Positions 467 to 11,405 of a stretch of DNA of 11,405 nt are shown piece after piece. Position numbers and translations under genes: made by a program. Source of the DNA: a virus (lineage: Duplodnaviria; Heunggongvirae; Uroviricota; Caudoviricetes). A model generated the notes under the pieces. That model did not search any database. It saw nothing but the letters and a program-made list of their open reading frames with translations, and had not been told where the DNA came from. Position 1 is the first letter of the stretch, and the number at the start of each line of letters is the position of its first letter. Location of the stretch: IMG/VR virus record IMGVR_UViG_648276668_000008, positions 1-11,405 of that record; one strand, given 5' to 3'.

Positions 467-511
467 TGGTGGCCCTTGCTGGACTTGAACCAGCGACCAG
501 GCGATTATGAG
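467..511 (-). repeat. att direct repeat: ~45-nt fragment matching the 3' part of a tRNA (CAU-type anticodon loop through T-arm and CCA); not a complete tRNA
   Basis: Reverse complement reads ACTCATAATCGCCTGGTCGCTGGTTCAAGTCCAGCAAGGGCCACCA (anticodon loop CUCAUAA, T-arm GCTGG-TTCAAGT-CCAGC, acceptor 3' strand + CCA). Sequence 5' of it cannot form a D-arm or acceptor 5' strand. A second CCA-end copy starts at 11392. From memory it resembles the E. coli ileX/ileY-type tRNA 3' half. Confidence 0.7.
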
Positions 512-618
512 TTGGTTGATAACCCTTTACTTACAGATACTTAGCGATACTTTTCAATACCTTAGCATTTTTTAAAACTACTGTATAAATACCTGTATAT
601 ACCCCAAAATACTTCTTT

Positions 619-669
619 ACGGTATCCTATAGGTATCCTGGAACAGAACAAGCGATTTTCCAGGATACC
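619..669. promoter_or_regulatory. Candidate integrase arm-type binding sites: tandem GGTATCCT-ATA-GGTATCCT plus an inverted copy CCAGGATACC
   Basis: The 21-bp block ACGGTATCCTATAGGTATCCT (619-639) recurs exactly at 11324-11344 near the other end. GGTATCCTGG (632-641) has its inverted complement CCAGGATACC at 660-669, about 25 bp upstream of the int start. Confidence 0.5.
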
Positions 670-692
670 AGATCGCTTGGTGGGGTGTATGA

Positions 693-2126
693 GTGAAATT
701 ATTCAGATTCTCTAAAGTAAAAATTGCAGAACTGCCAACGCCGGAACATGGACAGGTCGAATATGGTGATACGGAGGTTAACGGGCTGCGTGTCCGTGTA
801 GGTTCGTCTGGTGTGAAAAGTTTCTGCATTTCCCGTAAGCGTAACGGAAAATTTATTCGTGCAACGCTGGGGCGTTTTCCTGATCTGAGCGTGGATAATG
901 CCAGGGCTAAAGCTATGGAACTCCTTGGCGAAGTCGCCACAACGGGGATAAATCCGAACATAGCAAAGCGCACTAACAACAAGGCCATGATAACGCTGAG
1001 TGAGGCGATTGACGCCTACGTAAAAAATCGTGGCCACCGCCTGAAACCCTCCACAGAAAAACAGTACCGCAGCATATTACAGAATTATTCCGGTGACTGG
1101 ATGGCCCATACCCTCGCCAGTATTTCCCGCGAACGGGTGGAACAACGGCATAAGGCCATCACTGATGGGGCTGTATGGTTCGGTGCTGATAAAACCACGT
1201 TACGGGCTGGGGTTGGTACAGGAAGCAAGGCACAGGCCGATTTATGGGCGCGTGCGCTGCGTGCCGTGTGTCGGTTTGCGCATGATCATTATCGTGATGA
1301 TGCGGGTAATACTCTTTTACCGGATCCGCCGACGCTGGTACTGAGCACTAAGCGCCAGTGGCACGGAACGGTAAGAAAAACGGAACGTATCCGCCTGCAT
1401 GATTTTTCGCGCTGGTTTGCTGCTGTAGCAGCTGTACGCGACCAGGGCGAACAGAAAAGGGATGATATAGCGGTGACGGTATGTGATGCCGTGGAAATGG
1501 CGCTTTTTACCGGACTGAGAAAATCAGAAATTTTTGGCCTTACGTGGGATCGCGTGAATATGGGCGGTCGTTTTTTCTGGATAGACACCACGAAAAACGG
1601 GGATCCGCTCGAATTGCCGATCACTGATACGTTGCGGGAGATGTTCCGCCGCCGGCTGAAAATAAAAAACGCTGATGATGTTCTGGTGTTTCCTGGTGTG
1701 AAGGGCGTTATTCAGGAGACACGGCACATCATAGACCGGATAAGCGCGGCTACCGTTTCAGAGTCGAACGATGAAATGCTCTCCCCTGTACCATTCAAAT
1801 GGCACGATGCGCGCCGGACGTTCGGAACGGTTGCCGAACTGGTGGGTGTGGGCAATTACATCCTCAAGCGCCTGATGAATCACCGTACTATGCGAAGTGC
1901 TGACGTAACGCAGGGGTATTTACATTTTGGTGCTGATGAACTGCTGGAGCCAGCGTCACGGATAGAACGGGCAATTCTGGAACATGCCGGGCTGGTGGAG
2001 AGTAAAAAATCTATTGATGCGCAATTGATGGCGGTCTTAAACAACCTAAGCGAAGAAGAAAAAAGGAAATTAATTTTTTCCTTATCTACAGATGAGTGTA
2101 ACCAGTTATGGCAGAAAGAAAAATAA
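693..2126 (+). CDS. int: Tyrosine recombinase, P4-type phage integrase
   Basis: 477-aa ORF from GTG 693 with GGTGGGG upstream. N-terminus GLRVRVGSSGVKSF...TLGRFPDLSV...GINPN fits the P4-integrase N-terminal pattern. Catalytic-domain motifs: LFTGLRKSE (box I Arg), WHDARRTF (HxxR), GYLH (Tyr). First gene inside the att repeat. Confidence 0.9.
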   Translation: MKLFRFSKVKIAELPTPEHGQVEYGDTEVNGLRVRVGSSGVKSFCISRKRNGKFIRATLGRFPDLSVDNARAKAMELLGEVATTGINPNIAKRTNNKAMITLSEAIDAYVKNRGHRLKPSTEKQYRSILQNYSGDWMAHTLASISRERVEQRHKAITDGAVWFGADKTTLRAGVGTGSKAQADLWARALRAVCRFAHDHYRDDAGNTLLPDPPTLVLSTKRQWHGTVRKTERIRLHDFSRWFAAVAAVRDQGEQKRDDIAVTVCDAVEMALFTGLRKSEIFGLTWDRVNMGGRFFWIDTTKNGDPLELPITDTLREMFRRRLKIKNADDVLVFPGVKGVIQETRHIIDRISAATVSESNDEMLSPVPFKWHDARRTFGTVAELVGVGNYILKRLMNHRTMRSADVTQGYLHFGADELLEPASRIERAILEHAGLVESKKSIDAQLMAVLNNLSEEEKRKLIFSLSTDECNQLWQKEK

Positions 2127-2845: not shown

Positions 2846-2978
2846 CTGGCTAGTGTATCTTAATAGCTGGCTATTAAGGCTAAATAACTGGTAACCTCCC
2901 CACAGCAACTGGCTATTGGGCTAAAAACAAAATACCCATTGATTGATATTTATCACCGTTGTTACTTAGAAGTACACG

Positions 2979-3197
2979 GTGATAGATATGAATTTAAAGA
3001 AATCTGATTTATCAACTGACCGCCTTACACGTGCTGAAGCTGCTGCCTACCTTGGCGTTAACAATCAAACGCTGGCGAACTGGGCCTGTACTGGCAAGGT
3101 AAAAATCCCTTTCCATAAGCTGGGGCGCAAAGTGCTGTATATGCGCACTGATCTCGATGCTTATCTTGCATCCACTCGCAGAACGCAGACGGTGTAA
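2979..3197 (+). CDS. Excisionase/AlpA-type helix-turn-helix DNA-binding protein
   Basis: 72 aa. LTRAEAAAYLGVNNQTLANWACTGKVKIPFHKLGRKVLYMRTDLDAYL fits the excisionase-family HTH pattern. Start is GTG 2979 or ATG 2988. Confidence 0.8.
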   Translation: MIDMNLKKSDLSTDRLTRAEAAAYLGVNNQTLANWACTGKVKIPFHKLGRKVLYMRTDLDAYLASTRRTQTV

Positions 3198-3544
3198 GGG
3201 GGAGTGATGGCACATAAAACAAAGGCGACCGTAGAGGGCCGCCAGTGGCATAACACTAAACTTGAGCATATCCAGAATACCAGGTTGTTGGCTGGTGGGC
3301 AATGCTATCAGTCTGGCTCGATTCGCTGCCATGCCTGCAATGAGCGTATTTTCCTAGAATACTCTTTAAGGTACTTCTCAAGGATAAACGCACATGGTGC
3401 GAATCTCTCCGGTTCATGTTCGTTTACCGCATTTTTGCGTTGTTTTTTCTTGGATGAGGATAATTTCTTTAATGATTTGTCAGTCATCGTAGATACCTGT
3501 AACCCTGTGCGCCACAGTTCACCGCACCACGGCGCTGGTGATGG

Positions 3545-3724
3545 TTACTCCTGCTCTTTGGCCTTGCGACGCTGGCGGTATTCAACTTCTCGCTTTAATG
3601 CTGCTGTTACAAACTGCCCTGTACTTTCACCAGGCATTTTTACCGCCTCAACATTGTTCATAACTTCATGCGGAACCCTTGCCGCAACTGTTTGTGATTT
3701 TGCGTTTACTGCTTTTGTCGCCAT
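3545..3724 (-). CDS. Small ribbon-helix-helix (CopG/Arc-like) putative repressor, 59 aa; below the ORF-track cutoff
   Basis: Minus-strand ATG at 3724-3722 with AAGGGG 8 nt upstream; stop TAA at 3547-3545. Translation MATKAVNAKSQTVAARVPHEVMNNVEAVKMPGESTGQFVTAALKREVEYRQRRKAKEQE shows a strand / helix / G-x-S-T / helix pattern typical of RHH proteins. It abuts the palindromic operators. Confidence 0.6.
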   Translation of the reverse strand: MATKAVNAKSQTVAARVPHEVMNNVEAVKMPGESTGQFVTAALKREVEYRQRRKAKEQE

Positions 3725-3774
3725 GTTGTGTACCCCTTACAAAAAACAAATGCAGTATGCAGGAAAAAAAATAA

Positions 3775-3826
3775 GTGTTCAACACTTGACGTGTTTAACA
3801 CCTGGATTTAAATTGGTGTTCAACAC
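3775..3826. promoter_or_regulatory. Divergent promoter/operator region with three 11-bp palindromes GTGTT(C/T)AACAC
   Basis: Copies at 3775-3785, 3791-3801 and 3816-3826. A sigma70-like -35 TTGACG (3786-3791), 17-bp spacer and -10 TAAATT (3809-3814) read toward the Icd-like gene and are overlapped by the palindromes. Confidence 0.6.
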
Positions 3827-3923
3827 CTTGTTGATGCAAGGTGCAGAAACGACGAAACCCGGCAGTGCGCTAACACTAACCGGGCTTCTAACCACCAACG
3901 ATAGAAAGCGTATCGAGGTAGCT

Positions 3924-4127
3924 ATGAGAAATCATACCACACACCCGCAAGGGCGGGACTCGCACGACCTGAATAAATACATCTGGCGTTTTATCGCCCT
4001 GAGCACCGCACAACCGCGCGTGATTCACATCGTGGCCACCAGCGAACAGGAAGCACGCCAGCAATCCCCGGCTGGCTGCGTGATGGTATTCGCCGCCCGT
4101 ATTCGTCAGGGGGTGTGCCATGCCTGA
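3924..4127 (+). CDS. Icd-like small protein (P4-type host cell division inhibitor family)
   Basis: 67-aa ORF, ATG 3924 with GAGGTA upstream. KYIWRFIALSTAQPRVIHIVATSEQEARQQ...VMVFAARIRQG resembles Icd-like proteins of P4-type elements (from memory). It is the in-frame C-terminal end of the 307-aa track ORF 3204..4127, which I regard as spurious. Confidence 0.65.
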   Translation: MRNHTTHPQGRDSHDLNKYIWRFIALSTAQPRVIHIVATSEQEARQQSPAGCVMVFAARIRQGVCHA

Positions 4128-4440
4128 TATGTCAAATTACCAGTACCTGATTAATCCGCATTTTAACTGTGAGCATGATATTGCTAAAAAGGTTTATTCC
4201 GCTGCGGATGGGGCTACTGACAATATATCAATGGCTGTTGCGTCAATTGGTAGCCTGATGTGGCATGCGTCAGAAAATGAGGAATATGACGAAAAGGCCA
4301 TGCGCATTGATATGGGTAATATCGGTTTGTTACTGGCAATGCTTGGACATTTTGATATTTCGTTACGGTGCACCATTGAAAATGCCACAGATGCATTAAA
4401 TGCTATAAAGAAAGCGAATACTGATTCAAATCGGGGATAA
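4120..4440 (+). CDS. Hypothetical protein
   Basis: 106-aa ORF; AGGGGG upstream; start overlaps the Icd-like stop (ATGCCTGA). Acidic, no recognisable motif. Confidence 0.55.
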   Translation: MPDMSNYQYLINPHFNCEHDIAKKVYSAADGATDNISMAVASIGSLMWHASENEEYDEKAMRIDMGNIGLLLAMLGHFDISLRCTIENATDALNAIKKANTDSNRG

Positions 4441-4446
4441 ATAATC

Positions 4447-4746
4447 ATGAGAACGTATTTATCTGGCTTGACTGCCAGCGGTTATGCACACCCCCAAATT
4501 ATCCCCGGCGCTATTTATCTGGATAAGAACGGTAACAGAGTAACGGTAAAAGAACTGATGTTTGACCGTGTGTATTTTATTCGTGATGGCTATTCATTTC
4601 ATAGTTCGCTGAACGTGGAGATCTTTATTAGCAGATTCAGGCGGGAAATCCCGCTTTCCAGAAATAACCATGTGTCACGTGTGAATGTGGATAAAAAACT
4701 ACAGGAACTGAAAAACATGATTGCCGCGTGGAGAGAGCAGAAATGA
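4447..4746 (+). CDS. Hypothetical protein
   Basis: 99-aa ORF with GGGGAT upstream; its stop overlaps the primase ATG (ATGA at 4743-4746). Confidence 0.55.
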   Translation: MRTYLSGLTASGYAHPQIIPGAIYLDKNGNRVTVKELMFDRVYFIRDGYSFHSSLNVEIFISRFRREIPLSRNNHVSRVNVDKKLQELKNMIAAWREQK

Positions 4747-6560
4747 AAAAAGCGCCAAATTTAAAACACCAGCCACGTGACAAAATGACGGAAGTCATCA
4801 TTTTTGCGGGTAGTGATGCGTGGGCACATGCGAAGCAGTGGCAGGAACAGGACGGGCGACTGGCTGGCGATAACGTGCCTCCTGTCTGGCTTGGAGAGCA
4901 ACAACTTGCCGAACTGGACAACCTGCAAATCGTACCGGACGGACGCTATCGCGTGCGTCTCTATCAGGCGGGGTTATTGCGTCCGGGGCTTGTTAATACC
5001 ATCGGGCAGAAACTGGCAGCGGCAGGTGTCAGGGATGCTGATTATTACCCTGAAGGAATGCACAGCCAGAAACGGGAGAACTGGCGCGAATATCTGGAAC
5101 GTGAACGGGCAGAGCAGGCGGAAAAGAAAAAGGTAGTTGAACTGCCTGTAAAGAAAAAAGAGCGGGTAAAAGACGATAACGCTTCATCACTGGCGCTTAA
5201 CCAGATGGGAGCAAGTCAACGCGGCGAAGTTCTCCTGGCACATTATGGCGGTGAACTGGCGATTCATGCTGACTCTGACACTGTTCACCATTACAACGGC
5301 GTTGTATGGGAGCCAGTACAGGATAAAGAATTACAGCGAGCTATGGCACAGATTTTCATTGATGCGGAGATCAGCTATTCGCAGAACGCCATTAAATCGG
5401 CGGTCGATACCATGAAGTTAAGTTTGCCTGTAATGGGGAATACAGCCCGTAACCTGATTGGATTCAGTAACGGGGTATTTGATACCAGAACAGGTAATTT
5501 TCGGGGGCATAACAAAAACGACTGGTTGTTAATTGCCAGTGAATTACCTTTCAGCCCACCAGCAGAGGGGGAAACACTGGCAACACATGCGCCGAATTTC
5601 TGGAAGTGGTTACGCCGTTCGGTGGCTGAGAATGACCGCAAGGCAGATCGCGTACTGGCGGCATTATTCATGGTGCTGGCGAACCGGTACGACTGGCAGT
5701 TATTCATTGAGGTAACAGGGCCGGGGGGAAGTGGTAAAAGCGTGATGGCGGAGATTTGCACCATGCTGGCGGGTAAGGCTAATACAGTATCAGCAAGCAT
5801 GAAGGCGCTGGAAGATGCAAGGGAACGTGCGTTAGTGGTTGGCTTTTCGCTGATTATCATGCCGGATATGACCCGCTACGCTGGTGATGGGGCAGGGATT
5901 AAGGCCATTACAGGCGGTGACAAGGTGGCAATTGACCCGAAACACAAAGCCCCCTACTCAACGCGTATTCCGGCAGTAGTGCTGGCGGTTAACAATAACG
6001 CCATGTCATTCAGTGACCGCAGCGGGGGGATCTCACGTCGTCGGGTGATATTCAATTTTTCGGAAGTTGTACCGGAGAACGAACGCGATCCAATGCTGGC
6101 GGAAAAAATAGAAGGTGAGCTGGCGGTAGTGATTCGCCATCTGCTTACACGGTTTGCTGACCAGGACGAAGCCAGACGCCTGTTATATGAGCAGCAGAAA
6201 TCTGAAGAAGCACTGGCGATAAAGCGAGAGGGGGATTCGCTGGTGGACTTCTGCGGCTATCTCATGGCGTCGGTAATGTGTGATGGCCTGTTAGTGGGTA
6301 ATGCTGAAATTGTGCCATTCAGCCCACGCAGGTATCTCTATCATGCCTATCTGGCTTATATGAGGGCACATGGGTTTGGTAAACCTGTAACACTGACGCG
6401 CTTCGGTAAAGATATGCCGGGGGCAATGGCGGAATATGGCAGGGAGTATATGAAACGGAAAACGAAGCACGGTTTGCGTTCAAACGTGACACTGACGGAG
6501 GAATCAGAAGACTGGATGCCATCATGTGTATCGGTCACTAATGACGACAGCAAAAATTAA
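4743..6560 (+). CDS. P4-alpha-like primase / replication initiator (D5/SF3-type NTPase); the satellite pri-rep gene
   Basis: 605 aa from ATG 4743 (GGAGAG upstream, ATGA overlap with previous ORF); the frame is open from GTG 4728. Walker A VTGPGGSGKSV and a possible Walker B LIIMPD. Followed directly by the iteron origin. Confidence 0.8.
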   Translation: MKKAPNLKHQPRDKMTEVIIFAGSDAWAHAKQWQEQDGRLAGDNVPPVWLGEQQLAELDNLQIVPDGRYRVRLYQAGLLRPGLVNTIGQKLAAAGVRDADYYPEGMHSQKRENWREYLERERAEQAEKKKVVELPVKKKERVKDDNASSLALNQMGASQRGEVLLAHYGGELAIHADSDTVHHYNGVVWEPVQDKELQRAMAQIFIDAEISYSQNAIKSAVDTMKLSLPVMGNTARNLIGFSNGVFDTRTGNFRGHNKNDWLLIASELPFSPPAEGETLATHAPNFWKWLRRSVAENDRKADRVLAALFMVLANRYDWQLFIEVTGPGGSGKSVMAEICTMLAGKANTVSASMKALEDARERALVVGFSLIIMPDMTRYAGDGAGIKAITGGDKVAIDPKHKAPYSTRIPAVVLAVNNNAMSFSDRSGGISRRRVIFNFSEVVPENERDPMLAEKIEGELAVVIRHLLTRFADQDEARRLLYEQQKSEEALAIKREGDSLVDFCGYLMASVMCDGLLVGNAEIVPFSPRRYLYHAYLAYMRAHGFGKPVTLTRFGKDMPGAMAEYGREYMKRKTKHGLRSNVTLTEESEDWMPSCVSVTNDDSKN

Positions 6561-6572
6561 ACTTATGGAATA

Positions 6573-6797
6573 ACTGTTCACCACTGTTCACCCTGTCATA
6601 AATATCTTTTATATCAGTATATTATAGGGTGAACAGTTATTTATGAACTGTTCACCAAACTATTCACTGTTCACCTTTTTGATTGTTTATTGAGCTTCAA
6701 GGGTGAACAGTGGTGAACAGTTGGTGAATAGTTTTTGTGAAACTGTTCACCCCTTAACATTATGAATTAAAAGAGAAAATATCAAAAGGTGAACAGG
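6573..6797. repeat. Replication-origin-like iteron array: at least 9 copies of ACTGTTCACC in both orientations around an AT-rich spacer
   Basis: Forward copies start at 6573, 6583, 6647, 6666, 6742; reverse copies (GGTGAACAGT) at 6628, 6702, 6712, 6788; degenerate copies near 6658 and 6723. AT-rich stretch 6593-6627. Sits between the primase and the next gene. Confidence 0.8.
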
Positions 6798-6847
6798 TGA
6801 AGGGTTAAAACGCAAAAATTTTAATTTACTGCTGTGAGATAAAGCCT

Positions 6848-7093
6848 ATGACAGCGAAGCACACAAAAAAATCACAATCGCACGCCCTTGATTTGACGGA
6901 ACACTGGTTAAGGGTGTCGATAAAAATCATCGACCGCAACGCCGGGGAAGGATATGCGAAAGCACATCCCGAACTGATTAGCGCATTCATGACAACGGCA
7001 GCTGCAAACTTTGCCACGCTGACAGAACGGGAGATTGCCGAAGCGGAACAGGTGACAACCATCAACGTTAAAACTGGAGAGCAGACAGCATGA
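6848..7093 (+). CDS. Hypothetical protein
   Basis: 81-aa ORF; stop overlaps the start of the SSB-like gene (ATGA). Confidence 0.5.
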   Translation: MTAKHTKKSQSHALDLTEHWLRVSIKIIDRNAGEGYAKAHPELISAFMTTAAANFATLTEREIAEAEQVTTINVKTGEQTA

Positions 7094-7431
7094 CAGCACA
7101 GATAGCGGCTTACGGGCGGCTGGTGGCTGACCCGCAGTTAAAGACCACCAGCAAGGGTACACAAATGACGATGGCTAGTATGGCGGTCCCCCTTCCGTGC
7201 AGCCAGGCAGATGACGGAACGGCGACGATGTGGTTATCCGTCCTGGCGTTTGGCAGACAGGCCGACGCACTGGCAAAACACCACAAAGGCGAACTGGTGA
7301 GCGTGGCGGGTAACATGCAGGTAAGCCAGTGGACAGGCCAGAACGGCGAAACGCGGCAGGGCTGGCAGGTTATCGCAGACAGTGTAATCAGTGCCAGAAC
7401 GGCGCGACCGGGCGGCAAAAAAGGTCAATAG
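7090..7431 (+). CDS. Single-stranded DNA-binding protein-like (OB fold only, no acidic C-terminal tail)
   Basis: 113 aa. GRLVADPQLKTTSKG...WLSVLAFGRQAD...GELVSVAGNMQVSQWTGQNGETRQGWQVIADSV parallels E. coli SSB GNLGQDPEVRY...WHRVVLFGKLAE...[22 protein letters not shown] (from memory). Confidence 0.7.
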   Translation: MTAQIAAYGRLVADPQLKTTSKGTQMTMASMAVPLPCSQADDGTATMWLSVLAFGRQADALAKHHKGELVSVAGNMQVSQWTGQNGETRQGWQVIADSVISARTARPGGKKGQ

Positions 7432-7529
7432 GGCCAGGCTACTGACGCACTGAACAGGGCAAAACAACAGTCGGGGAATGATGATCCGTACGGCGATAAT
7501 ATACCGTTTTAAATTCTGCAAATAAAAAA

Positions 7530-7558
7530 ATGCCGGAAGAAAATAGATTTTCCGGCAT
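7530..7558 (-). terminator. Terminator-like hairpin with a U-run only on the minus-strand side
   Basis: 9-bp stem ATGCCGGAA (7530-7538) / TTCCGGCAT (7550-7558), 11-nt loop. On the minus strand it is followed by TTTTTTTATTT (complement of 7519-7529); on the plus strand no T-run follows. Confidence 0.4.
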
Positions 7559-7729
7559 GCTACATAAATCCCGACCAAAGGAAGTAAATACATTAACACG
7601 AATTATCAGCACTGAAGTTGTCACGGCAGATTTTATACAACATTGCACTTGGTTGCATGTATTCGCATAGCAAATATCGGTGATAGCATATATCCACAAT
7701 TATTTTTAATGAATGCAAAGAGGATGCGT

Positions 7730-8770
7730 ATGGTTGATTTATATTCGCCTGCCCAGCTTGTGCAGGTGGCTAATGCTGAAGATGTGCAAAAAAAATTAAA
7801 TGCGTTGTTTACCAGTTTGTTTTTCACTCGCTCGGTAATGTTTGAATCGAGAGACATTATTCTTGATACGATCGACGATCCAAATATCCCGATCGCGGCG
7901 TTTTGCTCTCCTATGGTGGGCAGTAAGGTTTCACGAGATGAGGGATACGAATCAAAAACAATTCGCCCTGGCTATATGAAACCGAAAAGCAGCATTGATC
8001 CAAATAAGTTAGCTGTGCGCCCTGCTGGTGTGTCACCTGAGCAATACAATGCTTTTGGGGCGCGTAATATTAAAGTTAAACAGGCGATTGTAAATCAGGC
8101 TAAAGCTATTCGTGCACGTATTGAATGGCTTGCTGTTCAGGCAATCACAACGGGGAAAAATATCATTGAGGGCGATGGTATTGAACGTTATGAGCTGGAC
8201 TGGAATATAAAACCACAAAATATTATCACGCAGTCTGGCGGTGCTGAGTGGTCAGGTAAGGATAAAGAAACTTTTGATCCAAATGATGATATTGAGAGCT
8301 ACGCAGAATTTAGTGAGGGCGTCACTAATATCATCATTATGGGCGGTAATGTATGGAAGAAATACCGTTCATTCAGAGCGATAAAAGAGGCTCTGGATAC
8401 CCGTCGTGGTTCTAATTCCGAACTGGAAACGGCCCTTAAAGACCTTGGTGATTCGGTGAGTTTTAAAGGGTATATGGGCGATGTTGCGATTGTTGTTTAC
8501 AGCGGACGTTATACCGACGAGGACGGAACTGAAAAACATTTCCTTGATCCTGATTTGATGGTGCTTGGCAATACGGCTCTTCAGGGGATTGTCGCCTATG
8601 GCGGTATTCAGGATCCGGAGCTAATCCGAATGGGGCTGACTAAAGCCGAACTTGCACCGAAAAACTATATTGTGCCTGGTGATCCGGCTATTGAGTACGT
8701 ACAAACGCACTCTGCACCACAGCCAATACCGGCCCGCATCAATCGTTTTGTTACCGTTCGCATTGGCTAA
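7730..8770 (+). CDS. Major capsid protein, lambda gpE-like
   Basis: 346 aa from ATG 7730 (AAGAGG 6 nt upstream; frame open from 7643). Blocks ITQSGGAEWSGKDKETFDPNDDIESYA and LDTRRGSNSELETALKDLGDSVSFKGYMGDVAIVVYSGRY parallel lambda gpE (ITQSGGTEWSKRDKSTYDPTDDIEAYA; LDTRRGSNSELETAVKDLGKAVSYKGMYGDVAIVVYSGQY). Length is similar to gpE. Confidence 0.9.
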   Translation: MVDLYSPAQLVQVANAEDVQKKLNALFTSLFFTRSVMFESRDIILDTIDDPNIPIAAFCSPMVGSKVSRDEGYESKTIRPGYMKPKSSIDPNKLAVRPAGVSPEQYNAFGARNIKVKQAIVNQAKAIRARIEWLAVQAITTGKNIIEGDGIERYELDWNIKPQNIITQSGGAEWSGKDKETFDPNDDIESYAEFSEGVTNIIIMGGNVWKKYRSFRAIKEALDTRRGSNSELETALKDLGDSVSFKGYMGDVAIVVYSGRYTDEDGTEKHFLDPDLMVLGNTALQGIVAYGGIQDPELIRMGLTKAELAPKNYIVPGDPAIEYVQTHSAPQPIPARINRFVTVRIG

Positions 8771-8779
8771 GGGGGAGCA

Positions 8780-9121
8780 ATGGCTACTCATTACACTGAA
8801 CTCATGTCTGGCACTGAAGCACTGGTTACTACGCTGGGGATATTTTCAGCCAATAAAGGGATAATACCTGCGTTTACGCCACTGATGCAGGAAGATGCAA
8901 CTGGTGCGCTAGTGGTATGGGATGGAACGAGCGCAGGCAAAGCGGTTTATGTTTCCGCTGTACAAATCGACACAGCGAAAAAAACACAGGCACAGGTTTA
9001 TAAGACAGGTGTTTTAAATGTTGATGCTCTGAACTGGCCTGAGTCTGTAAAAGAACTGTCGGCAAAGGTTGCCGCGTTTGTTGGCTCAGGTATTTCTGTT
9101 CAGCCGCTGGCTCGTGTGTAA
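8780..9121 (+). CDS. Head decoration protein, lambda gpD-like
   Basis: 113 aa, AAGGGGGAG upstream. TPLMQEDATGALVVWDGTSAGKAV...YKTGVLNVDALNWPE...AAFVGSGISVQ parallels lambda gpD ([24 protein letters not shown]...YKSG...LWPE...AFAGTAISIV). Immediately follows the gpE-like gene. Confidence 0.85.
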   Translation: MATHYTELMSGTEALVTTLGIFSANKGIIPAFTPLMQEDATGALVVWDGTSAGKAVYVSAVQIDTAKKTQAQVYKTGVLNVDALNWPESVKELSAKVAAFVGSGISVQPLARV

Positions 9122-9132
9122 AGGGGGATACA

Positions 9133-9516
9133 ATGCAGAATCATTACAATGACCTTAAGCCAATTGCCGAAATGATGTATCCGGATCCAGCAGTAGAGGA
9201 ATTAAAGGCTATTGCTGACAAAATGCGTTTAAGTGAACGCCTTGTTGATATGAATCAGGTGATGGAAATTACTACCCTTAGCCGTCGCACATTGCTAAAC
9301 CTTGAGGCTCGCGGAGAGTTCCCCGAACGCGTACAGGTTACGGAAGGGCGTAAGGCCTGGTATTTAAGCGAAGTGATCGACTGGATAAACAATATTCCTC
9401 GCGCTTCTGAATATTGCCGCGTACCTGTCCCAAAAAAGCCAGATGCGGCGCTATGCCTCAAGATTGAGCGTGTACGCCGCAATGCACGGGATGGTCGCTA
9501 TAAGTTGATTGGTTGA
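9133..9516 (+). CDS. AlpA-family transcriptional regulator (HTH) with an N-terminal extension
   Basis: 127 aa, AAGGGGGA upstream. VDMNQVMEITTLSRRTLLNLEARGEFPERVQVTEGRKAWYLSEVIDWI fits the AlpA-type HTH pattern. Confidence 0.8.
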   Translation: MQNHYNDLKPIAEMMYPDPAVEELKAIADKMRLSERLVDMNQVMEITTLSRRTLLNLEARGEFPERVQVTEGRKAWYLSEVIDWINNIPRASEYCRVPVPKKPDAALCLKIERVRRNARDGRYKLIG

Positions 9517-9572
9517 TGAAATTAGGGCCCGTTCTGGCTGGCGGGTCCTTTCCGGCGATCCGGTAGGCTACG

Positions 9573-9614
9573 GGGCGGCGACCTCGCGGGTTTTCGCTAT
9601 TTATGAGCATTTTC
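9573..9614. other. cos site: lambda-type cosN (12-nt cohesive end GGGCGGCGACCT) with adjacent conserved sequence
   Basis: 9573-9606 matches the left end of phage lambda as I recall it for 34 of 34 nt (GGGCGGCGACCTCGCGGGTTTTCGCTATTTATGA), and 40 of 42 through 9614, then diverges. It lies ~120 bp upstream of the Nu1-like gene, the same arrangement as lambda cos-Nu1. Confidence 0.8.
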
Positions 9615-9732
9615 AGGGGGCTGGTGGTGGTTTTGTTGTTCGCTCTATCTCTATGAATAAGAAGAGAAAAATACAATCAATACACCAACCTGAAACAGTA
9701 ATTAAGTTGTGGTATCAATGAAATTGCACCTG

Positions 9733-10260
9733 ATGAACAAAAAAAACATGGCAAAAAGTTGCCGTGTAAGCGCCACTGCGTTTGATAAGTGGGGAGTGAT
9801 TCCCGTCGAGCGTAAGGGCCGTGAGGCATTCTATGATGTTGCCAGTGTAATAGATAATCGGGTTAACAATGCAATTAGCCAGATTACAAACGAAACGGGC
9901 GATATTGATGACGATGAACTTTTACGCGTCAGGATCAGATTACTGACAGCACAGGCAGAGGCGCAGGAGCTTAAAAACGAGCGCGAACGCGGCGACGTTA
10001 TTGATACAGAGTTTTGTATGTATGTTCTTTCCAAACTGGCGAGTCAGATTTCATCTATCATGGACAGCCTGCCGCTTACCATGCAAAGGCGCTTCCCACA
10101 GATGACTCCGGCTATGCTGGATGGACTTAAAAAGGAAGTGGCTAAAGCCTGTAATGCCAGTGCCGGAGTTGACGACAACCTCCCGCAGATACTGGCTGAT
10201 TACCTGATGGAAACTACCGGAAATGTGCCGGATAAGTTGCAGCCGAATAAAGACAAGTAA
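9733..10260 (+). CDS. Terminase small subunit, lambda Nu1-like
   Basis: 175 aa from ATG 9733 (frame open from GTG 9709). RLLTAQAEAQELKNERERGDVIDTEFCMYVLSKLASQISSIMDSLPLTMQRRFPQ parallels lambda Nu1 RLTRAQADAQELKNARDSAEVVETAFCTFVLSRIAGEIASILDGLPLSVQRRFPE. The N-terminal region (NKKNMAKSCRVSATAFDKW) also aligns with the Nu1 N-terminus. Confidence 0.85.
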   Translation: MNKKNMAKSCRVSATAFDKWGVIPVERKGREAFYDVASVIDNRVNNAISQITNETGDIDDDELLRVRIRLLTAQAEAQELKNERERGDVIDTEFCMYVLSKLASQISSIMDSLPLTMQRRFPQMTPAMLDGLKKEVAKACNASAGVDDNLPQILADYLMETTGNVPDKLQPNKDK

Positions 10261-10271
10261 CGTAGCGCACT

Positions 10272-10556
10272 ATGACAGAATCTGAATTGCTGGGATTAAT
10301 CCGCCGCGTTACCGGAATCAAACAACCATCAAGCAAACAGGAGGCCACGCAGCCGGACAGCGTGATAGCCGAAAATTACGCGCGTGTGGTGGCTGAGATG
10401 ATGCGCCGTGACGGTATCGAGCTTAACGGCGTGGATATGCGCGACATACGGATCAGAGTCCTTGAGTTGCTGGCATACCGTCGCCGTTCTCAACAACGGA
10501 GGGAGAGCGCGAAAAATACTTACCAGTGGAGGAAGCCGGAACGGTTGCGGCGGTAG
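10272..10556 (+). CDS. Hypothetical basic protein downstream of the small terminase gene; possible packaging accessory
   Basis: 94-aa ORF with an Arg-rich C-terminus and weak RBS. Sits where a large terminase would be expected, but is far too small to be one. Confidence 0.5.
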   Translation: MTESELLGLIRRVTGIKQPSSKQEATQPDSVIAENYARVVAEMMRRDGIELNGVDMRDIRIRVLELLAYRRRSQQRRESAKNTYQWRKPERLRR

Positions 10557-11345
10557 ATTCCTGATATTCAGGAAAACCACGAATCTGTGGGGTTTACTGG
10601 CGCGGTTACGGCGGTGACACGCACCGAGGCAGAACAATTACCGTAGGTTAAAGCGACAGTATTCACACCAAAGGCAGAAATTAGCGGTTAACGTAACTGA
10701 CTGATATTTTCGGGAACAGCCAACGGCTGAGGCCGGAGCTATAAAAATAGCTTTGGGTACAGTCCTCAGTTTTGAGGGATGTTAACCAACTGAATAATAA
10801 GCAAAGCTCAAAATTGAGTTTTGTATCTGCCTGAGTTATTTCTGTGCTAACTTGCTGATATTCCCGATAACGCAAAATTGCGTTGGCTGGTGGGTGAGTT
10901 GCAGATCTGCAACTCGACCATGAAATTACGGAAACTACCCGTAGTTTGGGTAGTAAGAGCAACACCCAGATTTTGGGGCTTACTCGCGATACCCAAATAC
11001 AGGGGATCGGTGGAAGAAATATCGTTTCTCATATGTGAGTACCGAGGGCGGAATTCCGCCTTCGGTTACTTATTGTGCTCATGCACAGGGAGGGGCGGGT
11101 CAAATCTCTGTACCCTGACGTCTTCCGGACTGCCAGCCCCATCGATTTTTTATACCCGCGAAAAATGAAAAACGCTTCACGCTGGTGGGTCTGATGCCGA
11201 TATGGGGATCCACATAACGGATTATCCGTGATCATCGACCAGCTATCATGTCGGATAGTTAAAGTTTCATGACAGGTATGATGTTGCGTAACTTGTTGTT
11301 TTTATACCTGCTTATACTCTGTCACGGTATCCTATAGGTATCCTA

Positions 11346-11383
11346 GAAAAAACGAAGGGGTCACGCTGTTAACGTAACCCCTT
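11346..11383 (-). terminator. Rho-independent terminator for the minus-strand tRNA
   Basis: Minus-strand hairpin AAGGGGT-(15 nt)-ACCCCTT (11355-11383) followed by CGTTTTTTCT; begins 8 nt downstream of the tRNA CCA end. Confidence 0.65.
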
Positions 11384-11391
11384 GATAGATA

Positions 11392-11405
11392 TGGTGGCCC
11401 CTGTT
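11392..11405 (-). tRNA. 3' end of a tRNA gene, truncated by the window edge; integration target
   Basis: Reverse complement of 11392-11405 is AACAGGGGCCACCA, which differs at two positions from the CCA end of the 467-511 repeat (AGCAAGGGCCACCA). A terminator follows on the minus strand. Confidence 0.5.

Follow-up and report, generated by a model that had tools for sequence, protein, structure and literature searches.

The octamer GGTATCCT occurs as five exact copies in the 11,405-nt stretch of DNA analyzed here (the window), all of them within ~160 bp of the two junctions of an integrated island, and these copies most likely serve as the arm-type sites to which the P4-family tyrosine integrase of the island binds. 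From the sequence data, we infer that the integrase, and not an AlpA-like protein which co-varies with it, would be the factor that binds the octamers. The evidence comprises the position and spacing of the copies, their conservation in relatives, their exchange together with the integrase gene, and an attachment site architecture that is shared with P4.

The island, its tRNA target and the repeated block

As judged from its sequence, the window is a ~10.9-kb PICI-like phage satellite residing in the tRNA-Ile gene ileY. In near-identical E. coli loci the island adjoins a tRNA-Ile gene according to the RefSeq annotation, and in other strains ileX is the site of the same island type. Comparison with the empty site of K-12 identified positions 1–466 of the window as the normal ileY downstream region and position 513 as the first island base. 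The stretch 1–465 was found in 3106 of 5426 E. coli genomes, K-12 among them, and the possibility that it is the end of a second, tandem island was ruled out, as it represents the normal downstream region of ileY. The attL core region consists of the displaced 3′ 46 nt of the host tRNA-Ile gene (467–512, minus strand); identity to the empty K-12 ileY stops at 512, and the anticodon-loop overlap TTATGAG is located at 505–511. On the attR side, positions 11392–11405 (minus strand) are the 3′ end of the functional, island-completed tRNA-Ile gene. The T-arm bases are host-type in the left tRNA copy and island-type in the right copy; by this comparison, the crossover must lie in ACCAAGCGATTATGAGT, which is the anticodon arm, and the right-hand copy of this region must be situated just past the window end.

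The int gene (693–2126, plus strand) encodes a tyrosine integrase of 477 aa (Pfam, PHROG integrase) with an N-terminal arm-DNA-binding domain. Its residues 9–94 match the Pfam family Arm-DNA-bind_3 (50.2 bits vs a cut-off of 27, E = 2.9e-13) and residues 266–403 match Phage_integrase, and a weak match (E = 0.13) was obtained to PDB entry 3ju0, which is listed as 'Phage integrase'. The end of int is overlapped by an ORF of no assigned function (2108–2845). An AlpA-like HTH_17 protein (2979–3197, plus strand; Pfam) moves with the int module and, based on its family matches, is a probable excisionase or activator. A D5-type primase/helicase gene (4728–6560; Pfam/PHROG) is followed by GGTGAACAG iterons at 6560–6800. 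Further island genes code for a lambda-E-type capsid protein, a head-decoration protein, a second HTH protein and a Nu1-type small terminase (Pfam/PHROG), and GGGCGGCGACCT at 9573–9584 is an exact lambda cosN.

A first-pass annotation had described an identical 21-bp block near both ends, each built of two octamers one helical turn apart, and both statements were confirmed. The 21-mer ACGGTATCCTATAGGTATCCT has exactly two copies, at 619–639 and 11324–11344; no third copy with up to three mismatches was found in the whole window, and a 21-mer match appeared in none of 200 dinucleotide-preserving shuffles. Exact octamers on the plus strand start at 621, 632, 11326 and 11337 and form a proximal tandem pair (621–639, with units at 621–628 and 632–639) and a distal tandem pair (11326–11344, with units at 11326–11333 and 11337–11344), both of them proposed integrase arm-type sites. 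In both pairs, the octamer starts are 11 bp apart. The fifth copy is inverted (662–669, minus strand) and ends 23 bp ahead of the int start codon GTG at 693. For this copy the earlier description held for the octamer 662–669, which is exact to both units of the block, and did not hold for the longer extent 660–669, which matches only the GGTATCCTGG of the second unit. The five exact octamers compare with 0.33 expected from the base composition on both strands of 11.4 kb. Beyond the block, the arms are alike over ~55 nt with 75% identity (598–652 vs 11303–11357). The distances of 110 bp and 50 bp from the ends that had been noted for the blocks agree with the 108 bp (proximal) and 47 bp (distal) which separate them, on the island side, from the tRNA-Ile-derived junctions. 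Counted from the overlap, three octamers lie at 113–161 bp on the int side and two at 89–107 bp on the other side.

Conservation in relatives and exchange with the int module

A sample of related loci was collected by integrase homology only, with the block left unused. It comprised loci from three genomes (Kluyvera, Leclercia and Citrobacter; 75–78% integrase identity) and 12 viral contigs with an upstream arm (75–96%). All 15 loci hold CGGTATCCTAT(A/G)GGTATCCT ~125 bp past the core start and ~70 bp ahead of int, with invariant octamers and variable flanking bases. Hence, the conservation in related elements that had been proposed as a check was observed at every locus with at least 75% integrase identity. 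The distal pair was present with at most one mismatch in six of six loci with a right end (L001, L002, L008, L078, L083 and L096), and these right ends had come with the int match or with a whole-window match, not via the block. The three genome loci (L003, L005 and L006) have right ends past the 10-kb flank and thus are without distal arms in this sample. In L008 the cargo by the right end is unrelated, and the pair is still present 42 bp from the tRNA.

A pattern scan of viral contigs used the block itself as query, so that block conservation in this set is partly by construction. The 65 loci obtained were 28 int-proximal arms, 28 distal arms, three arm-like loci, which have another tRNA or an arm cut by the contig end, and six loci elsewhere. 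In the 28 contigs with a distal arm, the pair lies 90–94 bp before the core. Because homology of the distal arms in this set starts only ~24 bp outside the pair, the pair is located at the outer edge of the functional arm. The inverted octamer reads AGGATACC in 22 of 31 unique relatives and AGGATGCC in five, and the adjoining spacer bases are freely variable. Three of the six loci elsewhere are long GGTATCCT arrays, situated in the contigs L024 and L073 between genes for a sigma70_r4-type small protein and HNH/TerL, and in L065 beside a T7-type terminase gene whose end is ~40 bp away. These three arrays adjoin terminase genes and have no integrase link.

The repeats change when the integrase changes. 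Loci with integrases that are 61–62% identical to that of the window (L004 from Aeromonas and the viral L095) contain, in the place of the pair, three to four copies of RTATCCCC with 11-bp spacing. Many E. coli islands share positions 3197–11227 almost exactly and differ in integrase, AlpA and ends, and 3197, exactly the stop codon of the alpA-like gene, is where the homology to islands with a different int module begins. The recombination genes of one of these islands, L007, encode a different Arm-DNA-bind_3 integrase and a Phage_AlpA protein, and each of its arms has TTGTTCG arrays and, next to them, a GGTGTAGTTAAT pair that follows. A different int module carrying different repeats on both arms argues, at the level of sequence comparison, that int, alpA and both arms exchange as one unit and that the repeats are part of it. 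In all comparisons, the HTH gene diverged together with int and the arms, and no elements with the same arms and another or a missing HTH gene were found among them. Therefore, this comparison cannot separate the integrase from the AlpA-like protein as the binder of the octamers.

Proposed organization of the attachment site and control of int

The int-proximal arm (P′ arm; 513–692, plus strand), which is also expected to hold the int promoter and 5′ leader, contains blocks that are conserved in 30 unique relatives. One of its elements is an IHF-like site, TTTCAATACCTTA (552–564, plus strand), with one mismatch to WATCAANNNNTTR, of which TTTCA...TTA is kept in the alignment. The only exact IHF consensus of the window, TATCAAGGGGTTA (11375–11387, minus strand), is situated approximately midway between the distal pair and the core; its TTGAT and AA are conserved, even the AA that is unpaired in the stem of a terminator. 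This rho-independent terminator for the tRNA-Ile gene (11345–11383, minus strand; stem 11383–11355, T-run 11354–11345) is supplied by the island and has a fold of −20.2 kcal/mol (z = −4.1). As judged by eye on the alignment, its stem has changes on both sides in relatives. The T-run abuts the distal pair. With this element, the island replaces the tRNA terminator that its insertion displaces.

A second repeated motif accompanies both pairs. Two copies of ATAC, 10 bp apart (599 and 609; feature 599–612, plus strand), lie directly 5′ of the proximal pair and are conserved in relatives, and two copies with the same spacing (11304 and 11314; feature 11304–11317, plus strand) lie at the outer edge of the conserved distal-arm sequence. 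The two ATAC copies and the following pair have identical geometry on both arms, with TA centres 10, 13 and 11 bp apart. On the proximal arm, the motif extends into a helically phased series of six copies (537, 547, 557, 589, 599 and 609). Because of the analogy with the TorI arrays of KplE1, described below, and with locus L007, the ATAC motifs are candidate sites for a second factor (RDF), namely the HTH protein.

In the excised circle, the ends of the island would join to form an attP of ~370 bp. Its order would be two ATAC motifs, the distal GGTATCCT pair, the tRNA terminator with the IHF site and the 46-bp tRNA-Ile segment, followed on the proximal side by the IHF-like site, the ATAC series, the proximal GGTATCCT pair, the inverted GGTATCCT and int. 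Crossover would take place in or beside the anticodon loop of the 46-bp segment. The integrase would occupy the octamers with its N-terminal domain (residues ~9–94) and the core with its C-terminal domains, and bends introduced by IHF would turn each arm back and bring its bound protomers within reach of the core. The position of the octamers on the outer part of both arms, as such bridging requires, and the IHF consensus sites between the pairs and the core favor the integrase as their ligand. Upon integration, the five sites would be divided into three at attL and two at attR.

At the empty K-12 site, the nearest annotated gene upstream, ypjCB, is on the opposite strand. Since no co-directional gene precedes int, its promoter should lie within 513–692. 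A consensus promoter scan of positions 400–800 returned no match, and heuristic weight-matrix scoring together with reading of the sequence yielded three weak, mutually exclusive candidates, which place the pair anywhere from +4 to +61. The first, from the heuristic scan, has the −35 element TTTACT (526–531) and the −10 element TACTTT (548–553) with a start at ~560; the second, found by reading, combines TTAGCA (562–567) with TATAAA (584–589) and a start at ~596; the third combines TGTATA (582–587) with CAAAAT (605–610) and a start at ~617, and its position is conserved in relatives. All three candidates would place both the pair and the inverted copy downstream of the start and ahead of the int GTG; for the third, the pair would be at +4 to +23. 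In the proposed scheme, int would be transcribed outward from within the proximal arm, and integrase on the proximal pair and the inverted copy would overlap its own promoter or lie immediately past it and thereby keep int expression low. Because both elements are found between the predicted start and the GTG, repression of the predicted promoter by the integrase is plausible. It would be analogous to P4 Int and IntI of PAI I536, which repress their own promoters, that of P4 having a high-affinity IHF site (PMC7286903), and to the autorepression by IntS of KplE1 (PMC2951348). The suggestion in the first-pass annotation that int may be autoregulated through the arm is likewise plausible, because int is without a co-directional upstream gene and transcription is expected to start inside the proximal arm.

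The inverted octamer lies at the centre of an inverted repeat, CAAGCGAT-N15-ATCGCTTG (649–679), which was read from the sequence. Both arms of this palindrome copy the attachment-site core sequence ACCAAGCGAT, for which the chance expectation as a 10-mer in the window is 0.02. All of 31 unique relatives keep the 15-nt spacing, with a symmetric double change in one of them. The palindrome could be an integrase site that is bound via both domains of the protein, or the site of another dimeric protein. A more elaborate arrangement, in which an int-proximal composite autoregulatory operator uses both DNA-binding activities of the integrase and RDF sites are present on both arms, appears unlikely to us. 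If it were true, the cassettes of two ATAC motifs with two GGTATCCT octamers and of TTGTTCG with GGTGTAGTTAAT would mean that each of the two arms, rather than a single one, has RDF sites.

Known systems and alternative readings

The repeats of P4 (NC_001609) are annotated as 'attP arm sequence repeat' features (Pierson & Kahn 1987, cited via PMC7286903). Common to P4 and the window are five motif copies: a distal and a proximal tandem pair flank a core at a tRNA 3′ end, and an inverted copy sits at the int start. In both, the four direct copies are co-oriented with int, int points outward from the arm, and the integrase has an Arm-DNA-bind_3 domain. P4 has an IHF site in the int regulatory region, and IHF-like or consensus sites are found in the arms of the window. 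In int orientation, the order in P4 is GTGGGGGCACAA / AAGGGGGCATAT, 53 bp, a 20-bp core, 112 bp, TTGGGGGCATAA / TTGGGGGCATCT, 15 bp and ATGTGCCCCCAA. The corresponding order in the window is the pair, 47 bp plus the tRNA T-arm, the core, 108 bp, the pair, 22 bp, the inverted copy, 23 bp and the GTG. Relative to the core centre, the motifs are located at about −86 to −64, +123 to +146 and +162 to +173 in P4 and at −107 to −89, +113 to +131 and +154 to +161 in the window, and the proximal pair is ~110–125 bp from the core in both elements. The inverted copy of P4, ATGTGCCCCCAA, contains the int ATG, whereas that of the window sits 23 bp before the GTG. The motifs themselves are unrelated (GGTATCCT with 11-bp spacing in the window vs TTGGGGGCAYAN with 12-bp spacing in P4), and the targets differ, with 46 bp of tRNA-Ile (anticodon arm and whole 3′ part) in the window and the 20-bp leuX core in P4. 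Core-like half-sites that frame the inverted copy and a phased ATAC motif with each pair are features of the window only, and nothing like the palindrome at 649–679 was found in the P4 attP. The two integrases share 21% identity over 289 aa (pairwise E = 0.024). With this identity and the unrelated motifs, the comparison indicates that the island and P4 are linked by architecture and domain family and not by a recent common ancestor, and that the island is no narrow-sense P4 relative. The reading of the repeats as an integrase arm-type layout, which had already been put forward, is supported by the Arm-DNA-bind_3 domain, the fixed positions in relatives, the co-variation and the layout of P4.

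The attL of KplE1 (CPS-53; Panis et al. 2010, PMC2951348) contains the intS promoter, and the −10 element is overlapped by the IntS arm site next to int. GTTCG-type arrays, to which the RDF TorI binds, are located between the core and the arm sites of IntS, and TorI and IntS repress intS (PMC2951348). The window is similar in that the int promoter is predicted inside an att arm and proposed arm-type sites lie beside int. On a KplE1-like reading, the ATAC or TTGTTCG arrays would be RDF sites and the int-adjacent pair an integrase site. The KplE1 motifs, of the GTTCG type for TorI, are unlike those of the window, and int is located beside the intact tRNA gene in KplE1, whereas in the window it is beside the displaced tRNA fragment with the intact gene at the far end.

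The attP of lambda, like that proposed for the window, has five arm-type sites over two arms (P1, P2 and P′1–P′3), and IHF sites separate these from the core. Transcription of lambda int starts at pI/pL and runs towards att, so that it is without autoregulation through the arm. The N-domain family and the arm-site sequence of lambda differ from those of the window. In general terms, the lambda integrase is described as heterobivalent (PMC2951348).

With regard to gene content, the Gram-negative PICIs of the EcCICFT073 type (Fillol-Salom et al. 2018, PMC6092414) have int, alpA, pri-rep, ori iterons, packaging genes, a lambda-type cos, an island size of ~11 kb and an att site of their own, as does the window. 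The island in the window also encodes lambda E-like capsid, decoration and Nu1-like proteins, which distinguishes it from the EcCICFT073 PICIs. The function of int and att and the activator role of AlpA are established in that article, and term searches of it did not reveal a description of arm-type sites. The island is a previously undescribed case, with regard to the motif GGTATCCT and the target ileX/ileY, of a well-known kind of element, and it has a P4-like five-site attP. By analogy with the autoregulated systems mentioned above, its int is probably autorepressed.

The GGTATCCT pairs could instead be bound by the AlpA-like HTH_17 protein (2979–3197) acting as RDF, with the integrase sites elsewhere, for example at the ATAC motifs. 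This alternative is improbable in our assessment. It is in agreement with the constant association of the HTH gene with int and the arms and with the matches of the protein to PHROG excisionase families, and RDF sites are, according to the abstract of PMC7498355, typically direct repeats one helical turn apart. However, it leaves aside that the P4 arm-repeat layout is reproduced down to the fifth, inverted copy at the int start, and that the RDF-like position in the window is held by a second motif, ATAC. In KplE1, the RDF occupies short arrays that separate the core from the arm sites of the integrase, and the repeats beside int are not its sites. A GGTATCC-like motif upstream of alpA was found in none of 39 unique relatives, and the window has only GGTAACCT, with one mismatch, at 2890; its alpA upstream region contains other repeats (three copies of AGCTGGCTAKT), which are absent from the arms. 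Moreover, the AlpA of EcCICFT073 is an activator of its own promoter, and int is not under its control there (PMC6092414).

Another possibility is that the second proximal octamer and the inverted copy act mainly as a hairpin in the int leader RNA (631–643/657–669), with an effect on mRNA stability or translation. Piazzolla and colleagues are said to have reported premature termination or decay of P4 int transcripts in 2006. In the MFE fold, AGGUAUCCUGGAA pairs with UUCCAGGAUACC in a 12-bp helix, but this hairpin is no better than those of shuffled sequences (z = −1.79; 11 of 200 shuffles fold equally well). In most relatives the complementarity is limited to the 8–9 bp of the octamer, and an RNA hairpin leaves the identical distal pair ~10.7 kb away unexplained, which makes a principal role in RNA very unlikely. 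Finally, the block can hardly be some general repeat of the host or of phages (a packaging site, an iteron or a REP-like element) that is near both ends by chance: long GGTATCCT arrays with 11-bp spacing do occur in the unrelated viral contigs L024, L073 and L065, but 59 of the 65 viral-contig matches are att arms of this integrase family, the proximal and the distal arm of the window are found in 87 and 60 of 5426 complete E. coli genomes, respectively, at a median of one copy per genome and never on a plasmid, which also speaks against the host repeat that the first-pass annotation had considered, and the iterons (6560–6800) and the cos site (9573–9584) of the island lie elsewhere.

The assignment of the octamers to the integrase reveals no new mechanism, and the arms are a known kind of arm-site system. 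It provides a site-by-site att map for a common enterobacterial satellite-island integrase, with arm sites, IHF sites, the crossover region and the island-supplied tRNA terminator. Such a map helps to delimit islands, to predict which of them have remained mobile and to design vectors that integrate at ileX/ileY. The persistence of the P4 five-site layout at 21% integrase identity suggests that this architecture, and probably also the autorepression of int, is family-wide and not a peculiarity of P4.

Flanking elements of the integrase gene and the tRNA-Ile junction

The inverted octamer upstream of the integrase gene (662-669) is enclosed in a palindrome, CAAGCGAT-N15-ATCGCTTG, at window positions 649-679, both arms of which copy the att core sequence ACCAAGCGAT. 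The length of its spacer was constant across 31 unique relatives, and one of the relatives, L030, carries a symmetric G-C to A-T change in the counterpart of this palindrome. Farther upstream, approximately 44-29 bp before the proximal octamer pair (621-639), most relatives (including L003, L006, L009 and L018) contain CTGTATAAATAACCAG. This sequence matches CTG-N10-CAG, the pattern of known LexA boxes. The window (582-597) and its closest kin have CTGTATAAATACCTGT instead, without the right half of CTG-N10-CAG. Judged by this motif, the integrase gene might be under SOS control in the other clade, that is, in the relatives with CTGTATAAATAACCAG.

At the opposite end, the island supplies a rho-independent terminator for the interrupted tRNA-Ile gene (11345-11383, minus strand), and the T-run of this terminator directly adjoins the distal octamer pair (11326-11344). 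In relatives, the stem is altered on both of its sides according to an alignment judged by eye. The T-arm of the tRNA was compared between the island-borne 3' segment (window 11392-11405 and positions 12514-12559 of the related locus L001) and the displaced 3' part of the host gene (window 467-512), which itself carries an A-to-G change at position 500. Paired changes distinguish the island-borne segment from host ileX/ileY (CTGTTGGGTTTGAACCAACG vs CTGCTGGACTTGAACCAGCG), so a chimeric tRNA-Ile is expressed by the lysogen.

In L019 (3400-3640), a relative with another target, a sequence resembling the distal arm adjoins another tRNA gene at its 3' end and comprises two TAC motifs, the octamer pair, a T-run/hairpin and an IHF-like site. 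The design of the distal arm serves this element as well.

The alpA upstream region and a fast-evolving reading frame

The inverted repeat TATCACCG...CGGTGATA at 2942-2993 overlaps both the ribosome-binding site and the start of alpA. It is kept in most relatives, and the remaining alpA upstream region is highly variable. Its half-site is identical to the lambda operator consensus half-site TATCACCGC, with a spacing that is not the same. The intergenic region preceding alpA also contains three AGCTGGCTAKT repeats (2841-2917), two of which sit inside AATAGCTGGCTA palindromes. These repeats are poorly conserved among relatives, and none were found in the att arms.

An ORF of 245 amino acids (2108-2845) lies between int and alpA, sharing 19 nt with the end of int. 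No matches were obtained for it in Pfam, PHROGs or PADLOC. Its products share 26-52% identity between most relatives whose integrases are 75-96% identical; in L008, the identity is 99.6%. The ORF is a fast-evolving accessory gene.

Replication and packaging region

Directly after the primase gene, GGTGAACAG iterons are densely clustered in direct and inverted orientation (6560-6800) and presumably represent the replication origin of the island. The exact lambda cohesive-end sequence GGGCGGCGACCT (cosN) is present at 9573-9584, and the stretch around it (9541-9619), which is located just upstream of a Nu1-type small terminase gene (9709-10260), shares 91-93% identity with lambdoid phages. The island evidently employs lambda-type cos packaging. 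Just upstream of cos, a second HTH protein is encoded (9133-9516) that matches phrog_2790, a PHROG family annotated as 'excisionase and transcriptional regulator' (E=9e-49). This gene is part of the conserved cargo and lies outside the integrase module.

Arrays of four to nine tandem GGTATCCT-like units with 11-bp spacing were also observed in the unrelated viral contigs L024 (~4000-4130), L073 and L065 (~2500-2560). In L024 and L073, they are bordered by a gene for a sigma70_r4-type small protein on one side and by HNH/TerL genes on the other, and in L065 a distance of ~40 bp separates the array from the end of a gene for a T7-type terminase. As a candidate role, these arrays may function in packaging recognition.

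Exchange of the recombination module

The part of the island that serves replication and packaging (3197-11227) shares ~96% identity with L007 (NZ_CP013663) and with many other E. coli genomes. The islands sharing this part possess another integrase, another AlpA and other arms, and are inserted at a non-tRNA site between cspD/yljB and clpS. One module breakpoint is precisely the alpA stop (3197). The recombination module is swapped as a cassette between islands.

In L007, the alternative integrase module features TTGTTCG arrays followed by a GGTGTAGTTAAT pair (2970-3137 and 13440-13520), and this order is identical on its two arms. The TTGTTCG arrays contain the pentamer GTTCG, which is bound in KplE1 by the recombination directionality factor (RDF) TorI. 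The arms of L007 suggest a shared cassette design that would combine an RDF array with an integrase pair.
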